From IMG/VR virus record IMGVR_UViG_3300044468_000011, positions 1 through 59,275 of that record: 59,275 nucleotides of DNA. The stretch is one strand, 5' to 3'. The position numbers were made by a program, and so were the translations under genes. Within the stretch, counting starts at the first letter, position 1, and every line of letters starts with the position of its first letter. Positions 1,707-45,403 of the stretch are shown piece by piece. The stretch is from a virus. Lineage: Duplodnaviria; Caudoviricetes. Below the pieces are notes generated by a model that saw only the letters and a program-made list of their open reading frames with translations, was not told the origin of the DNA and did not search any database.

Positions 1707-2740
1707 TCGGGCAGTTCGATCGCGAGCGCCTCGATTCGATGGTCGCCGAGGGATGGCTGCGAAGCCAGCGACACCCGGAAGCCGACCTGTGGATCTACAA
1801 CTACACCGAGAAGACCCAGTTTGAGAACCACTGGACGCCGGAGACGCTGGCTTGCCGCGGACTGATCCTCGGCCCTGACGGTGGGATCGTCGCCCGCCCC
1901 TTCCCGAAGTTCTTCAACTACGGCGACCCTCAGGTCGGGCCGATCCCCAAGGGGGGCTACCGAATCACCGAGAAGATCGACGGGTCGCTCGGGATCATGT
2001 ACAGGCTCGGCGGTGAGGCGAGGCTGGCGACCCGAGGCAGCTTCACGAGCGAGCAGGCCCTCGAAGGAACGGCGATGCTCGCCGATTACGACTACTTCGC
2101 CTACGCGGGCAGCACTCCCTTGTTTGAGATCGTCTACCCGCAGAACCGGATCGTCGTCGACTACGGAAACCGCCGCGAGCTGGTCCTGCTGGCAGTACTC
2201 GACAACGCGACCGGGATGGAGGCGGAGATGCAGTGGCGCGGCCCGACGGTCGATCGGCACGACTATCTGGAAATCGCCGACCTGCCGAAGCAAAGCCGAG
2301 CTAACCACGAGGGCTATGTCGTCACGTTCCCGACCGGCCTGCGATTCAAGGTCAAGCACGCCGAGTATGTCCGCCTACACAGGATCATCACGGGTGTCAA
2401 CGCTCGGACCATCTGGGACGCACTTCGCAGTGGCGACGAGGTCGATGCCTTGCTCGACGGTGTGCCCGATGAGATCCACGACTGGATCAGCGCCGTCCGC
2501 CGTGAATTGAACGCCCGGTTCTTCGACGAGGACTCGCACTGCCGTGCGGTCTTCGGAGACAGGCCGGTTGATGCGGACCGCAAGGCTCTTGCCACCTACT
2601 TCCAGTCGAGCGAGGCCAACCCCGCGGTCCTCTTCCGGATGCTCGACGGGAAGCCGTACGACGACCTGATCTGGAAGGCGATCAAGCCTGAGCCGACAAC
2701 GCCGGACACGGTCTGGACCAGGGACGAGGTTGCGGCGTGA
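1703..2740 (+). CDS. RNA ligase, T4 Rnl1-like
   Basis: Motif I EKIDGSL, CRGLIL..ARPFPKFFN, FEIV, EGYVV, KVK. Confidence 0.92.
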   Translation: MIGQFDRERLDSMVAEGWLRSQRHPEADLWIYNYTEKTQFENHWTPETLACRGLILGPDGGIVARPFPKFFNYGDPQVGPIPKGGYRITEKIDGSLGIMYRLGGEARLATRGSFTSEQALEGTAMLADYDYFAYAGSTPLFEIVYPQNRIVVDYGNRRELVLLAVLDNATGMEAEMQWRGPTVDRHDYLEIADLPKQSRANHEGYVVTFPTGLRFKVKHAEYVRLHRIITGVNARTIWDALRSGDEVDALLDGVPDEIHDWISAVRRELNARFFDEDSHCRAVFGDRPVDADRKALATYFQSSEANPAVLFRMLDGKPYDDLIWKAIKPEPTTPDTVWTRDEVAA

Positions 2741-3393
2741 ACCTCGAGCAGAAGATCAACGATCTCCTCGGCCGCCTCGCCATCATCTCCGAGGCCCCCG
2801 CCGGCAACCTCGAAGCCCAGCTCTCCCGCTCGGCCCCGGAGTCCTCAGAGCCCAGCGGCGCCCTCAGTCTCGCCCACCACACCGACGCGAAGCGAGGATT
2901 GAGCCTCTTCGAGTGGTATCGAGACGAGTTCGCCAAGCGAATCGCCGAACCCGACCGGCTCCTCAGCCTCTACCTAGCCGGAGAGCGGGAGTATCTTCGC
3001 CGAACCGACCCCCGCATCCATGCCGCCACCGCCGAGAAGGGATCGATCGTTGCCTACTCCGAAGACGGGGCGACGGTGGAGGGAATCGCGGCCGAGCACG
3101 TGATCAAAGAGTTCGAGGGGGTCCATGCACTGGACGTGGCGATCATCGAAGGGAAGACCGAAGCCTGGGTTCTGAAGGTCCGCCGTCTGCACGGTCGCAA
3201 CCCCCACGACGGCCGGGCCCTAGCGGAGTTCCGCGAATGGGATGACGAGGAACGTCGGCGGCAGATCGAGCTCTATCTTGTGGAGGTCCGGAGCAGGGGA
3301 CAGCAAGCCGGGGCGAAGCGGATCGCCAACCACTTCGGCGTCTCCAAGCAGACGATCCAGCGCTACCTCGATTCGCCTGCGGTGGCGGCGTAG
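2737..3393 (+). CDS. HTH DNA-binding protein, candidate late-gene regulator
   Basis: C-terminal HTH GAKRIANHFGVSKQTIQRYL; last large gene before the tRNA/late region. Confidence 0.7.
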   Translation: MNLEQKINDLLGRLAIISEAPAGNLEAQLSRSAPESSEPSGALSLAHHTDAKRGLSLFEWYRDEFAKRIAEPDRLLSLYLAGEREYLRRTDPRIHAATAEKGSIVAYSEDGATVEGIAAEHVIKEFEGVHALDVAIIEGKTEAWVLKVRRLHGRNPHDGRALAEFREWDDEERRRQIELYLVEVRSRGQQAGAKRIANHFGVSKQTIQRYLDSPAVAA

Positions 3394-3403
3394 GGTTCCC
3401 GGC

Positions 3404-3646
3404 ATGGAAATCAGTTGGTTCGATCCGCCGGACTGGGTACGCAACGCGCCGCCGGTAACCAGCGCTGATCTACGACGCGCGATGAAAGAGGCGATGGTGA
3501 CCGGCACGCTGGTAGCCGCTCCGCGAAAGACCGGGCGCATGGCGGGGGAGCCGAGTTGCCGGCGAGCGGGTAACGAGCCCACGGTGCGCCCCTCTGCGCC
3601 CTTCGCGAACCCGACCGATGACCTTCCGTCCGTGGCTGACGTGTAA
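3404..3646 (+). CDS. Possible small hypothetical protein (MEISWFDPP...)
   Basis: ATG at 3404, 80 codons; weak RBS. Confidence 0.35.
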   Translation: MEISWFDPPDWVRNAPPVTSADLRRAMKEAMVTGTLVAAPRKTGRMAGEPSCRRAGNEPTVRPSAPFANPTDDLPSVADV

Positions 3647-3656
3647 TATCAGCCAC
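3632..3656 (+). promoter_or_regulatory. Palindrome GTGGCTGA-N9-TCAGCCAC around a TAATAT -10-like box; candidate late promoter/operator
   Basis: Perfect 8-bp inverted repeat upstream of the tRNA/late region. Confidence 0.45.
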
Positions 3657-3840
3657 CGATGGCCGTGGGACCAGTGCGTCCGCAAGCGGCCAACAGCCTC
3701 GCCGCTCCCGACGGCTAGAGGCACCTCAGCCGGATAGCAACGAGCCCCGCGAGAGCGTCCCCTGCCCGCCTTCGCGACTCACCGCTGTCCACCCCCGGCG
3801 CTTTCCTGTCAGAGGGACGGGCGCCGGGAGTCTTCACCGC

Positions 3841-3914
3841 CGCGGGGTAGAGCAGCCCGGTAGCTCGCTGGGTTCATGACCCGGAGGTCGCCGGTTCGAA
3901 TCCGGCCCCCGCTA
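3841..3914 (+). tRNA. tRNA-fMet (CAT), initiator type
   Basis: Cloverleaf; C1:T72 mismatch, GGG/CCC anticodon stem, loop TT-CAT-GA, T-loop TTCGAAT; CCA not encoded. Confidence 0.93.
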
Positions 3915-4410
3915 TGCCCGGTGTGGGCTTAAGCGCACCAACGCGAACCCGGGCGCGCAGAACCGGCAGGGTGGCCACCCTGTAGCGGCGGGCCTTCGGC
4001 GGCCGCCGCCTCGCCGGACGGGTACCGTCGCCAACCTTCATCACTGCCGTGGTGTAAATCGGAAGTCCCCGCCGGCAGCAACCAACTTCGAGCCGGACCA
4101 GCGATTCAGTTCATTGGGAAGGCCGATGCCAGTGGCAGGTAAAGCCCGCCGCGCCCGAGGGCGCTGACCGAGCGGACGCTGCCTGCCCGCTTCTTCCTGA
4201 AGCTACCGAGGAGGCGACCCAGCGTCGATCCAGTGGTAGCCACTCCCCCGCGCCCGTGCCGCCCGGGGTGAGGTATAGGCACGCGGAAGCCTCTGCGGGG
4301 GCGACCGTAATCAACACAGGCGAGAGGCCAGTCGCGCCCCTCAGGCGCTCGCCGTCCATACCTGACCGTCGCGGCGAAAGGGCGCCGCTCGCGACGGTGC
4401 CAACTTCGAA
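3915..4410 (+). ncRNA. Candidate structured ncRNA(s) between tRNA-fMet and tRNA-Arg
   Basis: No credible ORF; back-to-back nested helices (GCCCGG/CCGGGC, GGCAGGTA/TGCCTGCC, GCTACC/GGTAGC, CCCCCGC/GCGGGGG, ACCGTCGCG/CGCGACGGT). Confidence 0.5.
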
Positions 4411-4484
4411 ACGCCGGTAGCTCAGCACGGTAGAGCGGCTCCCTCCTAAGGAGCAGGGCGCGGGTTCGGATCCCGCCCGGCGTA
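4411..4484 (+). tRNA. tRNA-Arg (CCT)
   Basis: ACGCCGG/CCGGCGT acceptor, GCTC/GAGC D-stem, GCTCC-CTCCTAA-GGAGC, GCGGG-TTCGGAT-CCCGC. Confidence 0.93.
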
Positions 4485-4550
4485 CTGGACCCGCAGCCTC
4501 GTCACCTCGTGTATCCGGGGGCCATGCGGGTCTGCCCATTCGCATCCCCA

Positions 4551-4621
4551 GGGGGCGGGCGCCGGTCGAGTCGGCTGGTCTCCAAAGCCAAGCCGCCGAG
4601 GTTCGATTCCTCGCGCCCCCG
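4551..4621 (+). tRNA. tRNA-Trp (CCA), atypical D-arm
   Basis: GGGGGCG/CGCCCCC acceptor, G73, loop CT-CCA-AA, CGAGG-TTCGATT-CCTCG; weak anticodon stem. Confidence 0.75.
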
Positions 4622-4704
4622 TTGGACCACCGTGACCTCGCCCGCAGTCATGAGCCGCAAGGCGCTGATCGGGCAGGCCGGTGGCCGCTTCAACCAACTC
4701 ACCC

Positions 4705-4774
4705 CGCCGTAGCCAAGTGGCGCGGCGACTCACGACCCCGGCGAGCAAGTGCTGCGCCGAAGGAGGCAAGAGCC
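4705..4774 (+). promoter_or_regulatory. AAGN-tetraloop hairpin triplet 1
   Basis: GCC-AAGT-GGC, AGC-AAGT-GCT, GGC-AAGA-GCC around the AAGGAGG RBS. Confidence 0.55.
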
Positions 4775-4778
4775 CCCG

Positions 4779-4982
4779 ATGTCCCTCTTAATCGCCCTGA
4801 TCCTCGACATCTACTTCCTGGTGCAGAGCATCGGCCACAATGATCCCGGATGGGCGGCGGCCTTCGCCTTTGCTCCGGGGATCGCGATCGGCAAGGTGAT
4901 GACGGTCGCCTACCGTCGAGGAACCATCCTCCGCCTCGAACGTGAACTCGCTGCCCAGCGCGAGTGGGATGAGGAGGACTGA
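4779..4982 (+). CDS. Small membrane protein
   Basis: AAGGAGG upstream; two hydrophobic segments. Confidence 0.7.
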   Translation: MSLLIALILDIYFLVQSIGHNDPGWAAAFAFAPGIAIGKVMTVAYRRGTILRLERELAAQREWDEED

Positions 4983-5359
4983 TGAAACGCTGGCATCGGG
5001 AGCTAGCTGGAGTCGGCTTCGACCTGAGGCGGTTCTACGCGCGCAACCGTATCCTCCGCCTGTGGGTCGGATCGCTTGCGGTCTTCATCTGGCTGAGGGC
5101 AGGCGATATCAGCGGAGGAGTCGCCTCGCGCCGCGCATCCCTCAACTGGAATCTGCGCTGGAACGCCCAGTGGAGTCACCCTGGCGCGGGCGGGAAGCTC
5201 GTGCCCCAACCTCGATACATCCTCTGGCTCCGGCTCGGCGCGCTCTTGATGCCCGAATACGACCGTCGCACCCACCGCCACTGGAACTGGTCCAAGGGCA
5301 TCCGCGAGCTGATCGACATGCGCCCGTTCGGGTTCTTCCTTGAGGGGGCAGCGGTATGA
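4982..5359 (+). CDS. Hypothetical protein
   Basis: GGAGGA RBS; TGATG coupling. Confidence 0.65.
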   Translation: MKRWHRELAGVGFDLRRFYARNRILRLWVGSLAVFIWLRAGDISGGVASRRASLNWNLRWNAQWSHPGAGGKLVPQPRYILWLRLGALLMPEYDRRTHRHWNWSKGIRELIDMRPFGFFLEGAAV

Positions 5360-5709
5360 GCGCCGCGATCGTGCTTACCCCAGAGGAAGCTCTACGCGTC
5401 ATCAGCGAAGCCCCCGACGCTGCAGACAAGACCCCGGCGGACCTGATCGAGGCAGCAGAAGACTTCGAGCGCCAAGCCGACCGCAAGGACCGCCTCTCGC
5501 CACGGAACGCGGGCGGCACCCGCGCCAAGGCCCGAGCTAAGTCCAGGGAGCGCAAGGGAGACCGCTTACGCCTTCAGGCCCAGGTCTGCCGATCAGCAGC
5601 CTCAGAGATCGAAGCCCGCGACTGCCCGAACGTCGGGGAGGCGAGCAGGAGCGCCGTGGTGCGGGCGATGCGCCGGGCGCTCAGGCGGCAGGGGGGTGAG
5701 GCAGCGTGA
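5356..5709 (+). CDS. Hypothetical protein
   Basis: ATGA overlap; helical composition. Confidence 0.7.
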   Translation: MSAAIVLTPEEALRVISEAPDAADKTPADLIEAAEDFERQADRKDRLSPRNAGGTRAKARAKSRERKGDRLRLQAQVCRSAASEIEARDCPNVGEASRSAVVRAMRRALRRQGGEAA

Positions 5710-5918
5710 ACCGCATGCAGGTCAGCCTTGCCCGCAAGAAGGCCATCGAGTCGGTAGCCGAGGAAGAGTTCGACCTGCACCATGGGCGAGACATGTACGG
5801 GTCAGCTTGGGTGAGCGCCACGGACGCACAGCGCAAGGCAGCTATCGAAATCACCACCGAGACGTTGGAGCGCTTGGAGGCCGCCGTTGGCTGTCGTCTT
5901 GGGGAGGCTCTGCCATGA
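5706..5918 (+). CDS. Hypothetical protein
   Basis: Coupled overlaps at both ends. Confidence 0.65.
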   Translation: MNRMQVSLARKKAIESVAEEEFDLHHGRDMYGSAWVSATDAQRKAAIEITTETLERLEAAVGCRLGEALP

Positions 5919-6505
5919 GCCCGCCCCGCTGTACCGGGAAGCGCAAGGACGGCAAGCCCTGCACGGCCTTCCCTAAGAAGGGAACCGACCGATGCGGGCG
6001 CCATCCGCGCGATGACGCGCCTGACACTCCATCCCCCGCGCGTGAAGAGACGCCGCGCCCCGAGCGCTGGAACCGCGACCACTGGCTCGACACCTTCCGC
6101 TGGTGCGGGATGGTCTCGATGACCTGCGAGCTGATGGGGATCTCCCGCCAGACCGCCTACGCCGAGCGCCAGCGAAACGAAGACTTCGCCGTCGCCTGGG
6201 CCGACATCGAGGAAGAGACGACCGAGGCGATGGAGCGCGAGGCCTACCGCCGCGCCGTCGAGGGAGTTACCACCCCGATGGTCTCGGCGGGCAAGCACGT
6301 CACCGATGTGCAGAACTACAGCGATCGCCTCCTGGAGTTCATGCTGAAGTCCCGTCGCCCCGAGAAGTACCGCGACCGTGTCGATGTGAACCACTCCGGG
6401 AAGGTCGAGAAGAAGGTCAAGCTCGATCTCGGCAAGCTGAGTGAGGAGGAGCTGGAGAACCTTGGGCAGATCCTCGACAAGCTCGATGAGCCGACGACCG
6501 CCTAG
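5915..6505 (+). CDS. terS: Terminase small subunit
   Basis: CTGKRKDGKPC..CGRH Zn motif, HTH GISRQTAY, EAYRRAVEG..YSDRLLEFMLK..PEKY; precedes TerL. Confidence 0.88.
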   Translation: MSPPRCTGKRKDGKPCTAFPKKGTDRCGRHPRDDAPDTPSPAREETPRPERWNRDHWLDTFRWCGMVSMTCELMGISRQTAYAERQRNEDFAVAWADIEEETTEAMEREAYRRAVEGVTTPMVSAGKHVTDVQNYSDRLLEFMLKSRRPEKYRDRVDVNHSGKVEKKVKLDLGKLSEEELENLGQILDKLDEPTTA

Positions 6506-6508
6506 CGT

Positions 6509-8038
6509 GTGCTCACCCGGCTCCCCTCCCGCGACGAACTGACGGTCGAGCGCTGTAGGCGTCGGCTCTCCACCTACATCCGGGAGGCGTGGCCGATCGT
6601 CGAGCCCGCCACGCCCTTGGTCTACGGCTGGCACATCGACACGGTCTCCGAGCACCTGGAAGCGGTCGGTCGGGGGGAAATCAAGCGATTGATCATCAAC
6701 GTCCCGCCGCGGACCATGAAGAGCCTGACGAGCTGCGTCTTCTGGCCTTCCTGGGAATGGTTGAGAGCGCCGGAGACGCGCTGGCTCTTCGCGTCGTACG
6801 CAGAGAACTTCGCCCACCGCGACAGCCTCAAGATGCGCCGGGTCATCCGCAGCGCGGGGGGCAGCGAAGAGGGCACGATCTTCCAGCGGCTCGGCTACCA
6901 GGGCGTCCTCTCGCTGCTCTCAGACGAGCCCTGGGAGCTGACCAAGGACCAAGACGCGAAGTCCCGCTACGACAACACGGCGGCGGGGATGCGACTGGCG
7001 ACCGGTGTGCGCGGTCAGGCCACGGGCGAGGGCGGCGACCGAATCGTGGTCGACGACCCGCTCTCGGCCAAGCAGGCGCGCTCAGACGCCGACCGGGAGT
7101 TCGCGAACACGTGGTGGGACGAGACGATGTCCACCCGGTTCAACAACGACCGAGCGGCTGCGGTGATCGTGATGCAGCGCCTCCACGAGGAGGATCTGAC
7201 TGGGCACCTGCTGGAGAAGGGTGGCTGGCACCACCTCTGCCTCCCGGCCGAGTACGAGCCCTCGCACCCCTTCGTCTACCCCGAGCGCGCCGAGCTTCCC
7301 TCCGGGAAAGAGATCCCCGGGGACCCTCGCACCGAGGAGGGAGAGCTGCTCGACGCCGAGCGCCTCGGCACCAAGCGCCTCAACGAGCTTCTGCGGGACC
7401 TCGGCTCCTATGGCTATGCCGGGCAAATGCAGCAGCGCCCCGCACCCCTGGAGGGCGGGATGTTCAAGCGGAGCTCGTGGCAGCGCTGGGAAACCCATCC
7501 GCCCTTCGAGCGCGTCGTCGCCTCCTGGGACATGCGCTTTTCCGACAGTCAGGAGGCGGCTTCCAGCTATGTCGTCGGTCAGGTCTGGGGGGTCCACGGG
7601 GCCAACCACTTCCTTCTCGCGCAGATCCGGGCGCGCCTGAGCTTCACCGAGACGCTAAAGGCGGTGCAGGCTCTCGATGACTTCCGCCGAGCCCCGGCGA
7701 AGCTGATCGAGAAGAAGGCCAACGGGGCTGCGGTGATGGACACGCTGAAGGCGAAGATCCCAGGCCTGATCCCGATCGAGCCCGAGGGCGGCAAGGAGGT
7801 GCGCGCCGCAGCGGTGGAACCGACCGTCGAGGCCGGGAACGTCTACTTGCCAGAAACCGAGTACATCCCCGCGCCACCCGGCTACGAGATGACCCGCGTA
7901 GACGACTTCATTTCCGAGCATGCGGTCTTCCCTAACGGCGCCCATGACGACCAGGTCGACGCGATGAGCCAAGCGCTCAACTGGATCGCAAGCGCTCCGG
8001 GCCCCGCCTCCAGCACCAAGAACCACCCGTGGCGCTGA
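6509..8038 (+). CDS. terL: Terminase large subunit
   Basis: Walker A NVPPRTMKS, Walker B IVVDD, MQRLHEED, nuclease SWD and HDDQVDA. Confidence 0.96.
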   Translation: MLTRLPSRDELTVERCRRRLSTYIREAWPIVEPATPLVYGWHIDTVSEHLEAVGRGEIKRLIINVPPRTMKSLTSCVFWPSWEWLRAPETRWLFASYAENFAHRDSLKMRRVIRSAGGSEEGTIFQRLGYQGVLSLLSDEPWELTKDQDAKSRYDNTAAGMRLATGVRGQATGEGGDRIVVDDPLSAKQARSDADREFANTWWDETMSTRFNNDRAAAVIVMQRLHEEDLTGHLLEKGGWHHLCLPAEYEPSHPFVYPERAELPSGKEIPGDPRTEEGELLDAERLGTKRLNELLRDLGSYGYAGQMQQRPAPLEGGMFKRSSWQRWETHPPFERVVASWDMRFSDSQEAASSYVVGQVWGVHGANHFLLAQIRARLSFTETLKAVQALDDFRRAPAKLIEKKANGAAVMDTLKAKIPGLIPIEPEGGKEVRAAAVEPTVEAGNVYLPETEYIPAPPGYEMTRVDDFISEHAVFPNGAHDDQVDAMSQALNWIASAPGPASSTKNHPWR

Positions 8039-8064
8039 GCGCCTGATCCCTTTGAAGGAGAGCC

Positions 8065-9486
8065 TTGAAGCCCAACGCCTCGGCGACCCACATCGCTGAC
8101 CTCATCGCCGAAGACGAAAATCGCCGCTCGGGGGAGTACCAGCGGGCGTGGAACGCCTACGACGGGGAAGGGCCGACCTACCTCGAGGTTGAGGACGGGA
8201 TCGACGACAACATCCGCCTCGACTACCCGGCGCTCCTGGTCGACAAGGGCGTGTCGTTCCTCCTAGGCAAGGACGGCGGCGTAACGCTGCAGCCCAGAGC
8301 TCCTGACGCTGCCGATCCGGATGCAGCCGACGAGGAGGCCGAGGACAAGACCGATGGCGCCCCCGACGCCGAGCAGGCCGCCGAGGAAGAAGAGGAGCGC
8401 GCTACCGCCGAGCTCGACGCGGCCTGGCCCCCGATGCGCCGGCAGATCGACCTCCACAAACTTGCCACCAACGGAGGGGTCTGCGGCCACCTCTGGGCGC
8501 TGATTTACAAGGACGGCCGCGTCTCCATCCTCGACCCCGGGAACTGCACGGCGATCTGGAACGAGGACGACCACACCGTCATCGAGCGCTACATCGTCCA
8601 GTGGACCACGGTGGATGAGGACAGCGGCCTCGGCGTGGTTCGTAGGTGGCGCATCGAGCCCGACAACGCCCGGAAGCCCACCTCTTGGACCAAATGGCTT
8701 GAGGAGCACAACGAGGACGCGAACGAGTGGGTCGAGCTGGAAGAAGTCCCGTGGCCCTACGAGTTCGCGCCGATCATCGACGGTCAGAACCTGATCTCGC
8801 CGAACACCTTCTATGGCAAGGCCGACCTCTCGCCGGCGCTGCTTGACATGGTGGAGCAGCTTGAGTCCCTGGCCTCCGACATGCGGCGGATCGCCCGTCT
8901 CCACGGCCACCCGGTGCCGGTGTTCACGGGCACCGACGCCGACAAGCTGCAAAGCCTCGAAGTCTCGATCGGCTCGCTCGTTGCCGTCCCCGACAAAGAC
9001 GCGAAGCTCGGCCAGCTCGCGATCGCCGAACTGACCTCGCTGCTGGAACTCTTCAAAGAGCTGAAGTCCGCCCTCTTCGAGTCAGGGCACGTACCGAAGG
9101 TGGCATTGGGCGAGACCACGAACTCCGGGCCCACCAGCGGGGTGGCGCTGAAGGTGGAGTACGAACCCCTCGCCGAGCGCACGGGAACCAAGCACCTGAC
9201 CTACGGCTACGTCGTCTCGGAGATCGCCCGCCGCATCTTGGCGCTCAAGGGCTTCAAGAACTGGACGGTCACCCTGGGCTGGCCGGACTCCACCCCCTCT
9301 GATCCGAAGGCCGACGCTGAAGCCGACGAAGCCGAGCTGCGGATGGGGATCGTCTCCAAACGCACCGTCGCCGAAAAGCGCGGCTACGACTGGGATGTCG
9401 AGCAGCAGCGGATCGCCGAGGAGAAGACGGCCGATGCGGAGGCAGCAGCCAAAGCCTTCCGTGAAGGAAACGTCGAAGACGAATAG
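8065..9486 (+). CDS. Portal protein (SPP1-like)
   Basis: Follows TerL; LLVDKGVSFL, TSGVALK, GIVSKRT. Confidence 0.9.
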   Translation: MKPNASATHIADLIAEDENRRSGEYQRAWNAYDGEGPTYLEVEDGIDDNIRLDYPALLVDKGVSFLLGKDGGVTLQPRAPDAADPDAADEEAEDKTDGAPDAEQAAEEEEERATAELDAAWPPMRRQIDLHKLATNGGVCGHLWALIYKDGRVSILDPGNCTAIWNEDDHTVIERYIVQWTTVDEDSGLGVVRRWRIEPDNARKPTSWTKWLEEHNEDANEWVELEEVPWPYEFAPIIDGQNLISPNTFYGKADLSPALLDMVEQLESLASDMRRIARLHGHPVPVFTGTDADKLQSLEVSIGSLVAVPDKDAKLGQLAIAELTSLLELFKELKSALFESGHVPKVALGETTNSGPTSGVALKVEYEPLAERTGTKHLTYGYVVSEIARRILALKGFKNWTVTLGWPDSTPSDPKADAEADEAELRMGIVSKRTVAEKRGYDWDVEQQRIAEEKTADAEAAAKAFREGNVEDE

Positions 9487-9498
9487 CGAGGAGCGACC

Positions 9499-9726
9499 AT
9501 GTACTTCCCGATCCCCCTGCCGATCCACAATGCCGGAGAGCCCGAGACGCAGCTTCAAAGGGCCCTGCGCGAGTTCGCTTGGAACCTGCACACCCTGCTC
9601 AATTGGCGACTGCCGAAGGCGTTCGGCCTTGACCGTTGCTCCGAATGCGGTGCGAGGCCCTGCGGGACGCAGCTCGGCCGCAAGTGGCTATGTAGTGCCC
9701 ATTCCTGTTTCGAATCGAACTGGTAG
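9499..9726 (+). CDS. Small Cys-rich hypothetical protein
   Basis: GAGGAG RBS; CSECG..CSAHSC. Confidence 0.6.
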   Translation: MYFPIPLPIHNAGEPETQLQRALREFAWNLHTLLNWRLPKAFGLDRCSECGARPCGTQLGRKWLCSAHSCFESNW

Positions 9727-9768
9727 CACCATCAAACCGGGGCGCTGCCCCAGAGGGAGAGAACCACA

Positions 9769-10116
9769 ATGGCCGAAGTCGAACGTGCCCCGCAACAGCC
9801 CACCGCCGCCGGCGTGGAACCCGCCGTGATCGAAGGTATGAACGCTGCCGATACGCAGCTCGTGCCGAACAGGAACGGCGATGTGGTGCTGCGCGTCAAA
9901 AACGAAAGCGGCGAAGCGACCAAAGTCACCATCGTCACGCCGAACGAAGTGAACGGCAACGCGATCGCCGACAAGGAAGTCGAAGTCGCGGCGGGCAAAA
10001 CGAAGCTCATCGGCCCCTTCCCGCCCTCGACCTACAACACCAAAAAAGGCTTCCTGCAGGTCAAATTCACCAAAACCACCTCGGTCAAACTCGAGGTCAC
10101 GCGCGTCACGGCGTAG
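9769..10116 (+). CDS. Beta-rich virion-associated/hypothetical protein
   Basis: Good RBS; VLRVKNES..VAAGKTKLIGPFP. Confidence 0.8.
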   Translation: MAEVERAPQQPTAAGVEPAVIEGMNAADTQLVPNRNGDVVLRVKNESGEATKVTIVTPNEVNGNAIADKEVEVAAGKTKLIGPFPPSTYNTKKGFLQVKFTKTTSVKLEVTRVTA

Positions 10117-10119
10117 CGA

Positions 10120-10323
10120 ATGAGCCTGACTGCCACGCGCACCCGATCCGTCATCTTCGACCGTGATCTCGTTGCCGAGCTTGAGGAGACGGTGAACGCA
10201 ATCCGATCGGAGTGGAGGGAGCGGGAACCGCACGTTTCTGACCCGGAGGTTCGCGCCGCAGCCAATGCCCGCCTCGACATTGCTAGCGGTTTGGTTGAGG
10301 TGCTCAAGGACCCGGGCCGGTAG
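10120..10323 (+). CDS. Hypothetical protein
   Basis: Fills the gap in the operon. Confidence 0.6.
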   Translation: MSLTATRTRSVIFDRDLVAELEETVNAIRSEWREREPHVSDPEVRAAANARLDIASGLVEVLKDPGR

Positions 10324-11364
10324 ATGATCCGAGCCGAGCGCGAGATCGCCAAGCAGCGCAGGCGCCTGATGGCGATTGAGTCCAACGGCATGTCGGAGAT
10401 CGCCCGCTCCTATCAGGTGGTGCTGAAAAACCTCAACGCGCACCTGTCCGCGTTGGTGAAGCGGATCGATGAGGCCGAGGCGGCGGGCGTCGAGGTACGC
10501 CCGGGATGGCTGGCGGCCCAGGACCGCTACCGCTCCCTCATTGCCCAGCACGAGGCCAGCACGCTCGACTACCTGCAGTCCTGTATCACCACGATCCTCG
10601 ATACGAAGAAGGCGGCCGTCGAGCTGGCGAACGGCGACGTGCCGGCCCTGACGCGAGCGGTCCTCGGTCGGGCTCCGGCCGCTGCTGAAGCGTTCGTTGC
10701 CAACAGTTTCTCCCGCCTCCCTGCCGAGCAGATGGCGCGGCTGGTGCGAAACGCCGCGGACGGGCGCCCTCTTGGCTCCCTGCTCGCTGAGATCGCGCCT
10801 CAGGCCACCCGAGGGGTGAAGGACGCCCTGCTCTCCGGGGTCGCGCGCGGGGCTTCGATCCGCAACATCGCCGCCGATGTGCGCAAGGCCTCGGGGCTCG
10901 CCCAGAGCCGCGCCATGCTCATCACCCGCACCGAGACCATCCGCGCCTATCGGGAGACCGCCCTGGAGGGATATCGGGGCTCGGAAGTGGTTACCGGGTG
11001 GATCTGGATTGCCGAAGTGAACGCCTGCCCGGTGTGTACGGCCGAACACGGCTCAGAACACACGTTGGACGAAGACTTCGCCTCGCACCCGGGATGCAGG
11101 TGCACGCCGCTGCCGCAGACCCGTAGCTGGTCGGAACTCGGGTTCGACCTGCCGGATGCCCGACCGGAAATCGTGGCCGGCGCGGATCGGTTCGCCTCGC
11201 TGCCCGAGGCCGACCGCCTCGCCATCCTCGGGCGGTCGCGGTTCGACGCCTACGAGGGCGGGAAGATCACCCTGCACGACATGGTGCGCGACACGCACTC
11301 GCCGCGGTGGGGGGACGGTAAGCGGACCGCGACTCTCGTCGAGTTGGGGATCGCGGCAACCTGA
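10324..11364 (+). CDS. Minor head protein (SPP1 gp7/MuF family)
   Basis: RAMLITRTE, WIW, CPVC, HPGCRC. Confidence 0.92.
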   Translation: MIRAEREIAKQRRRLMAIESNGMSEIARSYQVVLKNLNAHLSALVKRIDEAEAAGVEVRPGWLAAQDRYRSLIAQHEASTLDYLQSCITTILDTKKAAVELANGDVPALTRAVLGRAPAAAEAFVANSFSRLPAEQMARLVRNAADGRPLGSLLAEIAPQATRGVKDALLSGVARGASIRNIAADVRKASGLAQSRAMLITRTETIRAYRETALEGYRGSEVVTGWIWIAEVNACPVCTAEHGSEHTLDEDFASHPGCRCTPLPQTRSWSELGFDLPDARPEIVAGADRFASLPEADRLAILGRSRFDAYEGGKITLHDMVRDTHSPRWGDGKRTATLVELGIAAT

Positions 11365-11434
11365 CGCGCGACAACGGAACACCTATCCCGGTCGAGCAGA
11401 TCCGCAGCGTCACGATGGAGAACAATCACTGCAT

Positions 11435-11521
11435 GGAGCGAGTCCGGCAGGACGAGGAGCGCGCCCGCTAAGCGCGTAGGGCGACCGTGTCGCCTTCGGG
11501 GTTCGAGTCCCTGTCGCTCCG
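11435..11521 (+). tRNA. tRNA-Ser (GCT), C at position 33
   Basis: GGAGCGA/TCGCTCC acceptor, G73, long variable arm GGGCGAC/GTCGCCT, CGCGC-CCGCTAA-GCGCG, T-loop TTCGAGT. Confidence 0.85.
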
Positions 11522-11700
11522 CTAGGCACGCGCCACTGTGTGCGCGGCCAGGGCAGGTGGAGCCTCGCCACGAGGCGCGGGGAGTCCGGACCCTCCACTT
11601 GCCCGACGTCTTCCAGCGCTATAGCTCGCTTGGATCGCGATCCGGCGTTGGTAGTCCGCATCGGCCCCTGCTCCCGGTGCGGAGAACTTCGAATACAGGC

Positions 11701-11753
11701 CCCCCACAAGGGTGGGGGCGCCGCAATGCCTAAGGAGGCACCCGCAAGTGCGG
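11701..11753 (+). promoter_or_regulatory. AAGN-tetraloop hairpin triplet 2 (scaffold leader)
   Basis: CCCCCAC-AAGG-GTGGGGG, TGCCT-AAGG-AGGCA, CCGC-AAGT-GCGG. Confidence 0.6.
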
Positions 11754-11771
11754 AGAGTCCGTCGTATCCGA

Positions 11772-12626
11772 ATGTCCCTGAAGTTCCTGCTGCTGGTTGT
11801 CGGATCGGTGATCCGCCAGCGGGCCTTCGCGCTGAAGCCCCTCGCCGGGGGCCTGAGCGGCGTCACCGTCACGCCGCAGGGTGAGTTCCTCCCCCAGATG
11901 TCAGGTGGAGCCGAGACGCCGGAGGAGAAAGCCGAGCGCGAGGCCAAAGAGGCTGAGGCGAAAGCCGAGGAAGAGCGCGAAGCTGCCGAAGAGGAGGCCG
12001 AGGCCGCCGAAGCGGCTGCCCGCAAAGCCGAGGAGGAGGCGGCCGGCACCGAATGGGAGGGCGCCCTCGATAAAGAGAAAGCCGAACGCGCCGTCCGCAA
12101 CGCTCGCCGCAAGGAACGGGAGGCCAAGGAGCGCGCGGAGGCCGCCGAGAAACGAGCCCGCGACCTCGAGCAGGCCCAGGAGACCGAGCACGAGACCGCG
12201 AAACGGCAGGCCGAGGAGCGCCGGGTAGAAAACGAGCGCCTGCAGGAGTCCAACCGCCGCCTGAAAGCCAACGAGGCCCTGCGGGACGCTGCCGCCGATG
12301 CAGACGTGCCGCCGACGAAAGTCCGACGCCTCCTGAAACTGGTTGATCGGGACACGATCACCTTCGACGCCGACGGCGAGGTTGATACTGAAACCGCCGA
12401 GGAAGCCGTCAAGGACGTGCTCGACGAGTTCCCCGAGTTCAAGGCCGAGGCCAAGCCCGCAAAGGACCCCGAGGAACAGGAAGAAACCCCCGGCGGCAAC
12501 CCGGACCGCAAACGCAAGCCGAAGAAGATCGACCGCGCTGAGGTCGAACGGCTTGCGAAGGAGGACCCCGACGAGCTCAACAGGCTCATCGACGAGAACA
12601 AGGTCCCGGCCTCCGCCCTCAGCTAG
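11772..12626 (+). CDS. Capsid scaffolding protein
   Basis: E/A/K-rich coiled coil immediately before the major capsid gene; start uncertain. Confidence 0.85.
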   Translation: MSLKFLLLVVGSVIRQRAFALKPLAGGLSGVTVTPQGEFLPQMSGGAETPEEKAEREAKEAEAKAEEEREAAEEEAEAAEAAARKAEEEAAGTEWEGALDKEKAERAVRNARRKEREAKERAEAAEKRARDLEQAQETEHETAKRQAEERRVENERLQESNRRLKANEALRDAAADADVPPTKVRRLLKLVDRDTITFDADGEVDTETAEEAVKDVLDEFPEFKAEAKPAKDPEEQEETPGGNPDRKRKPKKIDRAEVERLAKEDPDELNRLIDENKVPASALS

Positions 12627-12647
12627 CGACTTGTGAGGTGAGACGCG

Positions 12648-12732
12648 GCGGCAAGTGTCGCTCCCGACGCCTCCCCACAACCGACGTAGGCGGCAAGTGC
12701 CGCCTAACCCCGCGCTCCAAGTGGCGAGCGGG
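12648..12732 (+). promoter_or_regulatory. AAGN-tetraloop hairpin triplet 3 (capsid leader)
   Basis: GCGGC-AAGT-GTCGC, TAGGCGGC-AAGT-GCCGCCTA, CC-AAGT-GG within a longer stem. Confidence 0.6.
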
Positions 12733-12770
12733 CAGCCCCATACCTACAAGCTCGAAGGGAGGTAGCCCCC

Positions 12771-13652
12771 GTGGCTATCAGCAACTTCATCCCCGAGCTG
12801 TGGTCTGCCCGCCTGCAGAGGCACCTGGACCGCACGCTCGTCTACGCCCAGGAGTCGGTGTGCAACCGCGACTGGGAGGGGGAAATCAACGAAGCCGGCG
12901 ACACCGTCCACATCCAGAAGGTCGGTGACCCGGAAATCAAAACCTACGTCCCCGGCGTCGACATGGACTCGCCCGAAGAACCGGACGGGACCACGCTCGC
13001 GCTGATTATTGACGCGTTCCGCTACTTCAACGTGGCGATCGACGACGTCAACAAAGCGCAGGTCAACGTCAAACTGCTCGACTCCTTCGCGAAACGAGCG
13101 GGCGTCAAGATGTCCCAGGCGATCGATGCCTTCGTCGCCGCCAAGATGGTCGCAGCGGCTACCGTCAACAAAGTCGGCACCGACGCTGTACCTACCGTCG
13201 TCAAGGCCGACGGTAGCGGCGACTTCACCCCGTACGATTTCTTCGTCGAGCTCGCCGGACTCCTCGCCGACAACGACGCCCCCGACGAGAATCACTGGGC
13301 CGCCGTCAACCCGGCGCTCATGCGGGAGATCCGCAAGGACGACGCCTTCATCAAAGCGTCCGAGATGGGCGCGGAGATGGTCCGTAACGGCCGCATCGGC
13401 GAAATCGCCGGCATCGAACTCATCCAAACCACGGGGACCCCGTCCTCGGCGGGCTCGGGTGGCTCTCCGGTGGCGAGCTGGAAGATCCTGGCGGGCGCCG
13501 GGAACTACTCCACCACGTTTGCCTCGCAGATCGTCGAGACCGAGGCGTTCCGCCCGGAGCGTCGGTTCGGAGACGCGGTCAAGGGACTGAACGTCTTCGG
13601 CGCCAAGGTTCTGGAGCCCGAGACCCTCGTCATCGGCCACGTCGCGAAATAA
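12771..13652 (+). CDS. Major capsid protein
   Basis: MAISNFIPELWSA..NRDWEGEI..GDTVHI..FGDAVKGLNVFGAKV. Confidence 0.95.
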   Translation: MAISNFIPELWSARLQRHLDRTLVYAQESVCNRDWEGEINEAGDTVHIQKVGDPEIKTYVPGVDMDSPEEPDGTTLALIIDAFRYFNVAIDDVNKAQVNVKLLDSFAKRAGVKMSQAIDAFVAAKMVAAATVNKVGTDAVPTVVKADGSGDFTPYDFFVELAGLLADNDAPDENHWAAVNPALMREIRKDDAFIKASEMGAEMVRNGRIGEIAGIELIQTTGTPSSAGSGGSPVASWKILAGAGNYSTTFASQIVETEAFRPERRFGDAVKGLNVFGAKVLEPETLVIGHVAK

Positions 13653-13665
13653 GGAGGCGATCTAG

Positions 13666-14034
13666 ATGGCAAAGCAGAAGACCTCCACTGAGGTCAACGA
13701 ATACCGCCACACCGAGACCGAGGAGACGCTGAGCGCCTACGTCGGGTCCGAGCTGGACAAAGTCCTGCTCAAGGACCCCGACTACGAGGTGGTCGGCGAG
13801 CGGACCCCGGCTCCCGAGGAGACGACCCCGGAGGGCGAGCCCGAGCCGACCCCACAGAGCGGGAAGACCCGCTCCGACGGCGGCCGTGTCACGGCGGCCG
13901 ACCTGGAGGGCAAGAGCCGCGATGAGCTGAACGATATCGCGACCGAAGCCGGGGTCGAGAACCCCGACGGGTTCGCCAACAAGGGCGAGGTGACCAAGGC
14001 GATCCTCGAGGCCTCGGGCACCCCGGAGGGCTAG
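13666..14034 (+). CDS. Head-associated protein with C-terminal HeH/Rho-N-like domain
   Basis: LEGKSRDELNDIATEAGVE..NKGEVTKAI. Confidence 0.75.
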   Translation: MAKQKTSTEVNEYRHTETEETLSAYVGSELDKVLLKDPDYEVVGERTPAPEETTPEGEPEPTPQSGKTRSDGGRVTAADLEGKSRDELNDIATEAGVENPDGFANKGEVTKAILEASGTPEG

Positions 14035-18776: not shown

Positions 18777-18807
18777 GTAATCCACTCCGATCCGAAGGGT
18801 GCTCGGC

Positions 18808-21800
18808 ATGAACGCCGTCCCGGCGGCGGTCCTGAGCGTCCTCGTCCAGGCGAGGGGCATCAACCAGACCAACGCCCAGCTCGCAAAAACCGAGGGCTTC
18901 CTCCAGGGAGCAGCGGGTGCCGCGGGCCGGATGGCCCGGCAGCTCGTGACGGGGCTCAAGTACGCCTCGCTCGCGGCTGCCGGCGCCATCGGAGTGGCCG
19001 TCAAGAAGGCCATCGACTTCGACAAGGAGATGCGCAACGTCAACTCGATTGCGCAGCTCAGCGAGAAAAAACTGGGGCGGGTCCGAGACAAGGTCCTCGA
19101 ATTGGCGGGCAAGACCGCCCAGGCCCCGGTCACCCTCGCCAAGGGCCTTTACGACCTCGTCTCCTCTGGCTTCAACGCCGACGAATCGCTTCGAATCCTC
19201 TCCAAATCGGCCCGGGCCGCCACGGCTGGGCTCACGACCACGGAGATCAGCACCAAAGCAGTAGCCGCCGTCCTCAACGCCTACCACCTGAAGGCGAAGA
19301 TGGCGGGAGACACCTCCGACGTTCTCTTCGAAATCGTCAACCGAGGTGTCATCAGCTTCGAGGAACTGGCTTCGCAGATCGGCGATGTACTGCCCTTCAG
19401 CGCCTCCCTCGACGTAAATCTTCGGGAGGTCGGCGCGTCGATCGCCACGATGACCAAAGCCGGTATCTCCGCCCCGGAGACCATGACCCGGATCAAGGCC
19501 GTCATGGTCACCCTGCTGAAGCCCGGCGAAGCGCTGAGCAAGGTCATAAAGCAGCAGGGATACGACTCCGGCGATGCGATGGTGAAGGCGCTCGGTTTCC
19601 AGGGCACCCTTGAAGCGCTCTCCCGCGCCACTGGTGGGTCGAAGTCCGCGCTCGCCGAGCTGTTCCCCAACGTCCGTGCCCTCGGTGGCGCCCTAGCCCT
19701 GACCGGCGACAACGCGAAGGTCGCCCAGGAAGACCTCGCGGGTATGCAGGACGCCTCTGGGGCCACCGCCCGGGCCCTGAAGGAGCAGTCGAAATCGATC
19801 TCCTACCAGTGGAACCAGCTCAAGGCCACCGCTGAAGCCCTGGGCATCCAGTTCGGGGAAAAGCTGCTGCCGGAAATCGGCCGGGTGATCAAGATCATCA
19901 CCAACCCGAACCTCTCCACCGAAGAGAAGTTCACCAAGGTCTTCGACCTGATCCTGCGTGGGGCGGAAAACGCCCTGAAGGGCGGGATCGACCTAGCGAA
20001 GGACTATGGGCCGAAGATCATCGGCGCTCTCGTTTCCTCGATGGCAGGTGCCTGGTGGGAGATGAACGGCCTCGGGAAGGTTCTCTCGCTGGCGGCGCTT
20101 GTGCGGCTGCTGGGGGGGAAGGGAGCGCTCACCGCGACGGGGCAGGCGATCGGCCGCTCGCTCGGACTGGGCGTCAGCCAGGGGATCGCGACGACCGTGG
20201 CCGCGACCGCCGGACCGGCAATGGCCGCCGCTGAGGCCTCAGCGGCTCGCGGGGTGGCAGGTCCCGGTGCGGTATTCCCCGTCGTCGCCTCCAAGGCCCC
20301 CTTTGGCTCGGGCGCGGCACAAGCGGCGGCCGCCAACGCACGCCTGCGCGAAGCCGGAACGGCAGCGATCGGCGAGGGAGGTCTGTTCTCGGTTCCCAAT
20401 CTCAAGCGGGAGATGCTGGCGCGCGGGCAGAGTGGAGGAAAAGCCTTCTGGCAGGGTTGGACGGCGAGCGTCCGCGGCGCTGTTCCGAAAGCGAGGGCCG
20501 CGTTTAGGGGTCTCGGTACCGGGCTGGCTCGAGGTGCGACGACCTGGGGACTGGGAGGTCTCCTCGTCGGCGGGATGACCAAGGAACTGGTCGGAGGCGA
20601 CACCGGCAAGCGGATCGGCTCGGCTCTCGAAGCCGCCGGCGTCGGCGCAGCGATCGGCTCGGCCATCGCTCCGGGGGTTGGGACCGCGCTAGGCGCAACC
20701 CTCGCCGTCGGGATTGAGAGCTTCATTTCCGGGTCGCACGACGACTGGGGCGATCAGCTTGCGCAGGACTACATGGCCAGCTTGAAACAGCGGATTCCGG
20801 AGATCAAGCAGATGGTTCGTACGATGGATCTCGGCAGGCAGGGGGATTTCGCGACTTCTCGCGCGGAAGTCGCCGGTGTTCAGGTATCCGCGCAGGAACG
20901 GGTCGGGCGCTCTGGGTTGCGCGGACTTCGCTCAGAACTTCAGGAGGAGCTGAAGAACCTGGAGGGCGTCGGCGCCAGCAGCGCGGCCCTCGACACGGTG
21001 CGCCAGAAGCTCGAACTGGTTAACCGCGTGGTGCGGGAGGGCGTCGAAACGGTCGCCACCTACAAGCGTGGGTTCGACCTCCTGCAGTCCGGGACCGTGA
21101 CCCGGATGAAGGACATTGCCGACGTCACCCAGCAGAACGTCGGGCGGATCAACGACGTCTGGGCCCACAACCCCGAGAGGTGGCGACAGGCGATGGCCGA
21201 AAGCATGGCCGCCAGCATCTCGGCGATCAAGGCGGGGATGCGGCAGGGGGTAATCGAGACCGACGTCGGGTTGAAGCGGATCAAGGAACTGACCCGCAAC
21301 CAGCGCCTCTTCGAAGGCCGCGACCCGCTGGGGCTCGCGAAAGGCTTCTCCGCCAGTTGGGTGGAGGTCGGGCGGGTCAACGACCAGCAGATCGACGGGC
21401 AGATCAAGACCCTGCAGAAGCTCCCGAAGGGCGCGCGGGAAACTGCGCAGACGGCGATGGTCGGGATGGCCCGCACCTTGGAGAAGGAAGGCAGGCTCGT
21501 CAAAGGGTCCGCTTCCCGTTTGCAGTCTGCCCTCGTCACCAAGTTCGGCAAGACGAACCAGCAGATCGTCACCGAGACGAAGAAGGGCGTGCGGGCGATC
21601 GGGCAGGCCTTCTCCAGCCTTGGGCCGATCGTGTCCGGCTTGGTCAACTCGGTCTCCGGCTACCTGCAGGACCTCGGTGTCAACGTTGACGCGATCCTCA
21701 AGGCGTTCGGGGTCAAGCAGACGGTCAACTTCTCGGTGAAGACGGTGAAGGCCGGCGCTGACGCCGTCGGCCGCGCCGTTTCGGGGATCTTCGGAGACAA

Positions 21801-36967: not shown

Positions 36968-37243
36968 ATGGAGAAATCCGAGATCGCGAAGCTGACCGCC
37001 GCCGTCGAACGGGTCGGCGACCTGATCGAAGACCAGAACAGGCCATCCCCGCTGATGGGCCCGGAGGCCCAAGCCTTGACGCTCCTCGGGAAAGACCCCG
37101 ACAAATTCGCCGAGGCCCGGCACCGGCGGGAGATGCAGGATCTGGCCGAGGAAGAAGCCAGGTCGGCGAAGCTCGCGGCCCGGTGGAGCGCGGTTGCCGC
37201 ACTGGCTGCCCTCGCAACCGCCGGGGTGAGTGCCTTCCGGTAG
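36968..37243 (+). CDS. Small protein with C-terminal TM
   Basis: MEKSEIAKL..WSAVAALAALATAGV. Confidence 0.65.
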   Translation: MEKSEIAKLTAAVERVGDLIEDQNRPSPLMGPEAQALTLLGKDPDKFAEARHRREMQDLAEEEARSAKLAARWSAVAALAALATAGVSAFR

Positions 37244-37395
37244 TGCGTTACGCCGTCTTCGTGATCATCAGCAGCGGGGCGGCTGAGGGGGCCGGGGCAA
37301 TGGTCATCTCAGCCGCCCTTGCCGGTGCTGGCCAGGGGGAACTGCTGGTGGGTGGAGGAGAGCCGCACCGGGAGAGCGTAGGCGCCTTGGGGCTC

Positions 37396-37470
37396 GAACG
37401 CAAACGACCCGCCAGGAAGCGGGCCGGATGCGCAGAGCGGGCGAAGCGGGAAGCTGGCCCGCTAAGTCTC
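37396..37470 (-). terminator. Cassette B 3' element; direct repeat of 33605-33679
   Basis: Same identical blocks as copy A. Confidence 0.8.
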
Positions 37471-37725
37471 CTGCCGATCTTGAATGCGGGCGAACAGGTC
37501 GGCCCCGTTGAGCTTCTCGGTGCGTTCATTGCCCTCTTCGGCTTCGATCGCCCGCATGGCGGCGACTTCTGCGTTTTCCTTCTTCGCATAAATGCCGGGG
37601 TCGAGCGGGTTGACAGGGCCCGCCTCGCGGCCGTCGCTGTGCGTCGCCCCCCAACTCCACCCAATTGCCGTGCGGTTGAACTCAATAGTCCAAGCAGACA
37701 GATCAAGCGTCTTCGTCTCAGTCAT
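37462..37725 (-). CDS. Cassette B cargo, hypothetical (87 aa, ends QET)
   Basis: TAAGAT -10, GGAGG RBS, ATG at 37725. Confidence 0.8.
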   Translation of the reverse strand: MTETKTLDLSAWTIEFNRTAIGWSWGATHSDGREAGPVNPLDPGIYAKKENAEVAAMRAIEAEEGNERTEKLNGADLFARIQDRQET

Positions 37726-37869
37726 CCCGGGCTTCCCCTCCGAGTTAGTGGATTTGCGTTCAAGCATCTTATCCCCTGGCCGGATGCCTTATGCAACCCA
37801 TCCGATTCACGGTACGAGCGTGGCTTCGTCTTGACAATCGATGATTGGTTGAGCATTCTTCCCGGCCGC

Positions 37870-45317: not shown

Positions 45318-45403
45318 TGGGGCATGCCGTGCCGACGCCCGTCAGAAACCGTGTTCGCCCGCGGCGGCGCAAACGGGTCCGCGGATGCCCGGGACGGCGG
45401 CCG

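Follow-up and report, generated by a model that had tools for sequence, protein, structure and literature searches.

AAGN-loop hairpin triplets in the late-gene leaders of an uncultivated actinobacterial prophage

Nine hairpins in three leaders

The stretch of DNA analysed here (hereafter, the window) is a 59,275-bp provirus record in IMG/VR with 65.7% G+C. Ahead of the first open reading frame (ORF) of its late block, its scaffold gene and its major capsid gene lie three leaders, each carrying a triplet of small hairpins that share a four-base loop of the form AAGN on differing stems. A sequence-only reading of the window had described nine such hairpins, with loops AAG(U/G/A), and proposed that they are recognised by structure as sites of an RNA-binding antiterminator or translational regulator that sets head-protein stoichiometry. 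Our sequence reading and folding recovered all nine at their places, before the three genes named. The loop is AAGU in six hairpins, AAGG in two and AAGA in one, and a C–G pair closes it in 8/9, the exception being a U–A pair in hairpin 2b; the pair beneath the C–G closure is usually G–C or C–G. Stems are uninterrupted (4–8 bp) in five of the nine, and hairpins 1a, 1b, 1c and 3c require a mismatch or bulge. As had been noted, AAGGAGG is built into two of the triplets, at 4760–4766 in the 5′ arm of 1c and at 11732–11738 in the loop and 3′ arm of 2b; it occurs 18 times in the window, always on the plus strand. All leader features described below lie on the plus strand, with loops given in DNA letters.

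For comparison we used the prophage L002, carried on the chromosome of an uncultured Actinomycetes metagenome-assembled genome (capsid identity 95%); L163/L164 and L162, contigs from soil metagenomes (72%); and L082, an IMG/VR provirus also present as L165, L241 and L307 (64%). More distant capsids come from the Solirubrobacteraceae and Patulibacter loci L003–L005 (48–51%).

Leader 1, in which hairpin ranges were taken from constrained folds, stands ahead of the entire packaging and late block and not of a head gene. Hairpin 1a (4705–4727; loop AAGT, 4715–4718) is C–G closed, with 3 bp, an internal loop and a further 4–6 bp; in L002 and L082 its loop is AAGA and one pair has changed in a compensatory way, from C–G to G–C. 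Hairpin 1b (4739–4759; loop AAGT, 4747–4750) is likewise C–G closed, and the orthologous loops are AAGC in L002 and AAGT in L082. The 5′ arm of hairpin 1c (4762–4777; loop AAGA, 4768–4771), GGAGGC, is the Shine–Dalgarno (SD) core of AAGGAGG 4760–4766, and the ATG of the first late ORF follows at 4779, two bases past the 3′ arm; the loop is AAGA in L002 and AAGT in L082.

Leader 2 contains the scaffold ribosome-binding site. Hairpin 2a (11698–11722; loop AAGG, 11708–11711) has a perfect 7-bp core (11701–11718) with a GGC/GCC extension, and three of its pairs are altered on both sides among four genomes with pairing retained. In hairpin 2b (11727–11740; loop AAGG, 11732–11735) the scaffold AAGGAGG forms the loop and 3′ arm; the closing pair is broken (C·A) in L082 and L164. 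Hairpin 2c (11742–11753; loop AAGT, 11746–11749), C–G closed, is unchanged in four genomes. An in-frame GTG (11748–11750) falls on the 2c loop/stem boundary, 9 nt past AAGGAGG. It is the probable scaffold start, favoured because L164 carries a synonymous change before the next ATG and the protein is conserved from residue 1. Both RNAfold and RNAalifold predict pairing of 11688–11696 with 11764–11772, the latter within scaffold codons 6–9, so that in the single sequence as in the alignment a closing helix would enclose 2a, 2b, 2c, the SD and the start codon in a four-way junction. Its pairs are invariant (8/8) in four sequences, and covariation is therefore no test of this helix, which on this model would explain the near-invariance of the first 30 scaffold coding bases.

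Leader 3 differs in its relation to the gene that it precedes. Hairpin 3a (inner part 12647–12662, extended 12635–12673; loop AAGT, 12653–12656) starts 9 nt past the scaffold stop codon and continues across an internal loop into an outer helix, GAGGTG/CGCCTC, which in the alignment is GAGGYG with CGCCTC; its loop is AAGC in L002, L163 and L082. Hairpin 3b (12687–12706; loop AAGT, 12695–12698) has a perfect 8-bp stem, orthologous loops AAGC, AAGG and AAGC, one compensatory pair and several G·U changes. Hairpin 3c (12709–12732; loop AAGT, 12719–12722) has a 2-bp apical stem with internal loops beneath; its 5′ arm and loop are identical in five sequences including L162, and its 3′ arm varies with pairing retained. 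The capsid ribosome-binding site (12755–12773), with AAGGGAGG at 12755–12762 and a GTG start at 12771, lies outside the AAGN hairpins, the triplet sitting 23–120 nt upstream of it. A conserved CGCCTCCCC on the 3′ side of 3a (12667–12675) is complementary to the capsid SD by eye, so that the two might possibly form an alternative pairing. A long-range helix closing leader 3 in the minimum free energy (MFE) fold of the window was discarded, as it is not retained in relatives.

Conservation, enrichment and relatives

The central observation is that the loop is fixed and the stems are not. AAG is invariant in 34/34 orthologous loops from 4–5 genomes, and the fourth loop base varies among genomes at five of the nine positions (1a, 1b, 1c, 3a and 3b); it is fixed in 2a, 2b (where it belongs to the SD), 2c (where it belongs to the start codon) and 3c. 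From alignments of the three orthologous leaders, RNAalifold predicted all nine hairpins unprompted, preferring for 3c another register with a 6-nt loop. Standard pairs fill 96.7, 97.1 and 98.3% of alignment cells in the three leaders, compared with 30–56% when the 3′ partners are slid by 1–3 columns, and 5/77 pairs have changed on both sides, three of these in 2a.

Relative conservation is a stronger argument than covariation. Hairpin cores are 84–92% identical to those of L082 and L002, whereas the spacer between the tRNA-Ser gene and 2a (11523–11686) is 35–42% and the third codon positions of the capsid gene 62–74% identical to the same two genomes; in the scaffold gene the first 30 nt are 93–100% and the remainder 62–73% identical. 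Leaders 1 and 3 carry single-base insertions and deletions, which argue against a coding function, and leader 1 is conserved even though the ORF that follows it differs among L002, L082 and the window. The claim of structure-specific recognition is supported by these data, with a constant AAG, stems and fourth base that vary, and cores that outconserve both the spacer and synonymous capsid sites. Nor is AAGN an especially stable loop: on a C–G closure, AAGN loops rank 70–145 of 256 in the nearest-neighbour energy model, which is ordinary, and stability thus does not explain the constant loop.

Two descriptors were used to measure enrichment in the window. The relaxed one (C–G closure, AAGN loop, at least 3 adjacent pairs and a folding free energy at or below −7 kcal/mol) returned 14 plus-strand hairpins and a single minus-strand one. 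Seven of these 14 lie inside the 539 nt of leaders, 0.9% of the window, where 0.064 would be expected from the remaining plus strand (Poisson P about 8e-13). A strict, ungapped descriptor found 14 plus-strand and 2 minus-strand matches versus 3.9 ± 2.0 in 200 dinucleotide shuffles, none of which reached 14. Just 4 strict matches fall in leaders, making this a weaker test for the leaders themselves, and the biggest strict cluster, 2 per 100 nt, was equalled by 6/200 shuffles. Codon bias accounts for part of the strand excess, since CAAGNG is commoner on the coding strand (92 versus 48). The flanks of the 8 leader CAAGNG sites pair better than those of 84 other plus-strand sites (Mann–Whitney P 6e-4), and MFE folds of 22 other candidate non-coding gaps contained one C–G-closed AAGN tetraloop (54662–54667). 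Such hairpins were thus not equally frequent in coding sequence or on the reverse strand. The background itself is rich in hairpins, with 719 plus-strand tetraloop hairpins passing the relaxed filter. Outside the group, an unrelated IMG/VR contig (L258, 1927–1965) has one long hairpin with a C–G-closed AAGA loop and a T-rich tail. It looks like a terminator, and single AAGN-capped hairpins do occur without the triplet pattern.

The hairpins match no catalogued element that we searched for. At gathering thresholds, Rfam 15 reported two tRNAs only in the whole window, and permissive scans of 11360–12800 and 3390–4800 placed nothing on the hairpins, the best unrelated matches (E 0.03–10) being far below gathering. 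Neither Rfam 15 nor the literature searched, supplementary files apart, yielded an account of AAGN-loop hairpins as a phage or bacterial motif. Among the papers listed for the AAGU tetraloop, the subjects were yeast RNase III, a tick-virus group and methods, and none dealt with phages or bacteria; those listed for AAGN were all about a kidney disease, and searches combining phages with stem-loops gave only unrelated work. We also considered and rejected a dispersed host palindrome of the repetitive extragenic palindromic type: GGCAAGNGCC occurs 111 times in the 2.7-Mb L002 chromosome, compared with 77 for the reversed control, and the prophage leader holds the only close pair among the matches listed.

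So far the pattern has been seen only in a narrow clade of actinobacterial prophages, all uncultivated. Megablast of 4400–13700 against 50,697 phage records gave no match, and tblastn with the capsid found nothing above 38% identity in isolated phages. Uncultivated capsid relatives are many at the protein level, some of them 60–82% identical, with DNA compared for few; when genomes, IMG/VR and metagenomes were scanned with profiles, the only loci above 51% identity were L002, L082, L162 and L163/L164. Neither a single-protein capsid scan of IMG/VR nor a portal scan added relatives, and a scaffold scan and an exact 24-mer from leader 2 each returned only the same IMG/VR record, one already found. 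A 15-mer from hairpin 3c hit 66 loci, of which L241 (the L082 record) alone scored strongly with the leader-3 model, L301–L306 lying outside that scan. L002 and L082 have the complete set of three leaders, L164 has leaders 2 and 3, and L162 has a portion of leader 3; L003–L005 have a different capsid leader with no AAGN hairpins. Run over loci L002–L300 and the window, a leader-3 covariance model recognised only family members, apart from a weak match to leader 1 of L002 (14.4 bits, E 0.37) and weak unrelated ones. In a ranking of loci by how densely they carry strict C(AAGN)G hairpins, L164 is 1, L163 2, L002 4 and L082/L165 11–12, the remaining top ranks being short loci with one or two matches. 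C(AAGN)G matches inside the MuF-like gene of L002 and L082, not in the window, were set aside as a coding coincidence. Contigs from two soil DNA runs pointed to one probable source run and to fragments of a relative, with leader 3 not covered.

The genes around the leaders are those of a head-and-packaging module. PHROGs assigns the small terminase (5696–6505), large terminase (6509–8038), portal (8065–9486), MuF-like head-morphogenesis protein (10324–11364), scaffold (11748–12626) and major head protein (12771–13652), and the capsid belongs to the P22-coat/N4-gp56 family (PF25209). A tape-measure protein encoded by an 1889-aa ORF (18799–24468) identifies the phage as a siphovirus. Just ahead of leader 1, ARAGORN calls tRNA-Met (3841–3914), tRNA-Arg (CCT; 4411–4485) and tRNA-Glu (CTC; 4551–4621), and a tRNA-Ser (GCT; 11435–11522) lies between the MuF-like and scaffold genes, within the head-gene block. 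The tRNA-Ser has the same position in L082 (8686–8774), and the homologous stretch of L002 is 85% identical with no ARAGORN tRNA call. Downstream of it, in the spacer 11523–11686, are several strong hairpins that lack U-tracts, among them a 10-bp stem whose loop lies near 11664–11674; these hairpins could be unconventional terminators or a promoter region. The window has a wider RNA-repair and tRNA-related set, comprising an RNA ligase, four tRNA genes and a methyltransferase: the ligase is T4 Rnl1-like (1703–2740; Pfam PF09511, E 7e-11) and the 504-aa S-adenosylmethionine-dependent methyltransferase (37183–38697) matches a PHROG annotated 'tRNA methyltransferase'. Accessory genes of the early region (50873–51673, 58518–59006, 48249–48905, 57476–58033 and 40550–40978) encode a pentapeptide-repeat protein (E 9e-39), a Fic/DOC-family protein, two Dam-like adenine methyltransferases and an HNH endonuclease.

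Proposed operator hairpins and the alternatives

A constant loop and closing pair on free stems in the sense orientation are what would be expected of a loop- and shape-specific RNA-binding factor; constancy of AAG on free stems would be imposed neither by thermodynamic stability nor by a duplex-DNA site. We tentatively favour the reading, at slightly under even probability, that the nine hairpins are cis-acting RNA operators read by such a factor and acting on translation or mRNA stability. The factor, acting in trans, would most likely be a phage or host protein. Hairpins 1c, 2b and 2c are each weak on their own (about −7 to −10 kcal/mol, flanks included); binding would stabilise them and block ribosome entry at the scaffold gene and the first late ORF, repressing translation. 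In the scaffold leader this would take place within the predicted four-way junction, its closing helix reaching into the coding region. The capsid leader would act indirectly, through mRNA stability or through the choice of partner by the conserved anti-SD-like CCUCCC segment. The net effect would be a coordinated post-transcriptional dosing of the late block, scaffold and capsid. Of what was first proposed for the hairpins, recognition by a factor that reads a constant loop is well supported and the antiterminator finds no support; a translational regulator is plausible, as the SD and starts of two of the three genes lie inside hairpins.

Several results weigh against operators of this kind. 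The triplet of leader 3 is clear of the ribosome-binding site, so that a second effect must be assumed there and one mechanism may not fit all leaders. Folding energies of the three leaders differ little from those of shuffled sequences (z of −2.35, −2.45 and −0.54). Covariation is unremarkable for leaders 3 and 1 and modest for leader 2, as high a value being reached by 72, 168 and 11 of 500 column shuffles, respectively, and only 3–4 independent genomes enter the comparison. The stems contain about as many A·C mismatches as G·U pairs, so wobble pairs do not decide which strand is functional. Conservation of 2b and 2c may merely reflect the SD and the start codon. Finally, Pfam scans of 50 ORFs and PHROGs scans of 20 brought up no recognised RNA-binding domain.

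The sole hint of an RNA binder in the scanned ORFs is an acidic 122-aa protein encoded right after the capsid gene (13666–14034), with a sub-threshold match to Rho_N, a helix-extended-helix domain (E 0.0017). Elsewhere, a 218-aa protein (2737–3393) has a weak C-terminal helix-turn-helix match below Pfam cut-offs and no PHROG match; as the last ORF before the tRNA cluster and late block, it is a candidate late-gene regulator.

The alternative that survives best, although we consider it doubtful, is that the hairpins govern how the mRNA is processed or how stable it is, and have no regulator of their own: by blocking host exonucleases or marking host RNase cuts, they would raise the steady-state level of the scaffold and capsid messages and of the operon 5′ end. 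Leaders 1 and 2 lie downstream of tRNA genes (4551–4621 and 11435–11522), excision of which must make new RNA ends, and the tRNA-Ser keeps its place in L082; hairpin 3a begins 9 nt past the scaffold stop, and leader 1 is retained regardless of the following ORF. A eukaryotic RNase III reported to read AAGU-capped hairpins offers a precedent (PMC1868780). Protective hairpins, however, need no set loop, yet AAG is kept in every orthologue and is not specially stable, and about 165 nt of unconserved spacer separate the tRNA-Ser gene from 2a. Most stems, at 4–8 bp, are short for a substrate of bacterial RNase III, and the SD or start codon within three of the hairpins better fits translation.

We regard it as quite unlikely that the hairpins work like nut sites, recruiting a processive antitermination factor that would accompany RNA polymerase along the late operon. 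Short constant-loop hairpins on a nascent transcript, oriented with transcription, would suit such sites, as would the presence of one set where the late block begins, whichever ORF comes first, and the strong U-tract-free hairpins before leader 2 (the 10-bp stem near 11664) could be unconventional terminators. The antiterminator claim gains no support from a scan of 3300–13000, in which no consensus intrinsic terminator with a U-tract was found within the leaders or downstream of them on the plus strand; the scan gave 8 sites versus 6.8 expected, one of them on the plus strand, at 3783–3800, upstream of the tRNA cluster. No antiterminator family was detected in the 50 Pfam-scanned or 20 PHROG-scanned ORFs, and repeats placed right before the scaffold and capsid starts, embedding SD and start codon, are not what nut sites would lead one to expect.

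A specific form of the operator reading, to us very unlikely, makes the hairpins operators of assembly-coupled feedback, bound by the arginine-rich N-terminus of free scaffold protein. This N-terminus would be encoded by the same RNA that forms the closing helix of its own operator; binding would stop scaffold translation and co-tune the capsid message and late block. The scaffold does begin with five arginines in its first eight residues, a feature kept in four genomes. However, stretches with at least 5 arginines per 10 residues occur in 9 ORFs and are unspecific, and the scaffold N-terminus, though suggestive, was set aside as a binder because it is not distinctive in this phage. Were the idea true, it would represent an N–boxB-like recognition of hairpin by peptide that matches head-protein supply to procapsid assembly, and it would provide the missing cis element of P22-type scaffold autoregulation.

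DNA-level elements, either protein sites reading GCAAG or extruded hairpins serving as promoters or origins, appear highly improbable. The window does contain an iteron-like array (45718–45916) in which ACTTGCCCGG / CCGGGCAAGT is repeated about nine times, in both orientations; the array lies within a gene (45317–46111) whose product matches HTH_36 and the N-terminal domain of replication protein C, and is probably the replication origin. Its core GGGCAAGT occurs 9 times in the window versus 1.7 expected, with 7 copies within 45738–45900, and shares six bases with the hairpin core; the parity of A·C and G·U mismatches would also allow function on the minus strand. A link between the hairpins and these iterons was rejected, as G002, an L082 record that is 73% complete, keeps the three leaders with a single GGGCAAGT. 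Variable stems with a constant, asymmetric, sense-oriented loop are the opposite of a duplex-DNA site, and no sigma-70-like promoter was found in 3300–13000. Hairpin promoters of the N4 type were likewise dismissed: the 1889-aa ORF of this siphovirus encodes the tape-measure protein, not a virion RNA polymerase, and no giant enzyme of that kind was seen.

Chance in G+C-rich sequence, or conservation through recent common ancestry alone, is hardly credible, because the abundance of tetraloop hairpins, the coding-strand bias of CAAGNG and the strict-descriptor clusters reached in shuffles are set against the Poisson estimate for the leaders, the excess of leader identity over spacer and capsid third positions, and the fixation of AAG while N varies.

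The interest of the hairpins lies first in where they occur: late-gene control in actinobacterial phages is poorly understood, and the start-associated motifs of mycobacteriophages are a recognised puzzle. The window offers an unusually clean and compact case, with nine copies, an invariant loop trinucleotide, free stems and two built-in ribosome-binding sites, in a pattern that prophages share even where their capsids are down to 64% identity. It offers a handle, open to direct test, on scaffold and capsid dosing in a tailed phage and adds a candidate loop-specific RNA–protein pair beyond the known GNRA-like and ANYA-type examples, although the small uncultivated clade limits its immediate reach.

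Comparison with known systems

Among described phenomena, the closest in kind are the start-associated sequence (SAS) and extended SAS (ESAS) elements of Cluster K mycobacteriophages, another repeated actinobacteriophage motif tied to translation starts. As described in PMC3203893, these elements are associated with starts, include the SD, are almost all in the sense orientation and are conserved across relatives, with a function not known; the SAS is a 13-bp repeat, confined to the non-structural half of the genome at 11–19 copies per genome, and the ESAS consists of paired 17-bp inverted repeats conserved in sequence. Compared with that account, only the loop is conserved here and the stems vary, and the nine copies are all in the structural-gene region. 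No 13-mer is common to the nine copies beyond AAGGAGG.

The Rnt1p substrates of yeast RNase III resemble the hairpins in their loops. As reported in PMC1868780, Rnt1p recognises the fold of NGNN/AGNN or AAGU tetraloops, with the stem sequence free, and cleaves 14–16 nt from the loop. AAGU caps 6/9 of the window hairpins; their stems, however, are 4–10 bp, with only 3a reaching about 16 pairs, interrupted by internal loops. Rnt1p is moreover a eukaryotic enzyme, and in the AAGN hairpins any base (U, C, G or A) can take the fourth loop position. Bacteria are not known to have an Rnt1p-like enzyme, and a protein of this type was not sought in the window.

A parallel for the scaffold gene comes from P22-type heads, which are known to need mRNA-level feedback on scaffold synthesis. 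Post-transcriptional autoregulation of the P22 scaffolding protein gene is the subject of two 1985 papers cited in PMC5529062. The capsid of the window is of the P22-coat/N4-gp56 family, and the parallel is functional only. To our knowledge, no cis element has been defined for P22 scaffold autoregulation, nor has it been linked to AAGN hairpins.

In anatomy, hairpins 1c, 2b and 2c are built like the operators of RNA-phage coat protein, at the replicase start, and of T4, in which a weak hairpin holding the SD or start codon is bound at its loop by a protein that stops translation. Those operators have other loops, one hairpin per gene and known binders, whereas here the hairpins come in triplets, one of which is off the ribosome-binding site.

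The boxB hairpins of lambdoid nut sites, bound by N, are similar in being small, read through their loops, placed in the leaders of phage transcripts and oriented with transcription; N is an arginine-rich peptide, and the scaffold protein here starts arginine-rich. The boxB loop is a five-base, GNRA-like one, compared with four-base AAGN loops in all 34 cases here; a boxA-like element was not looked for. The present sites also differ in standing at late structural genes and embedding ribosome-binding sites, and no N-like protein was identified. The AAGN hairpins fit no described RNA family, although their kind, loop-specified hairpins in phage mRNA leaders, is already known; by analogy, the boxB–N hairpins and the RNA-phage coat-protein operators would be mechanistically closest.

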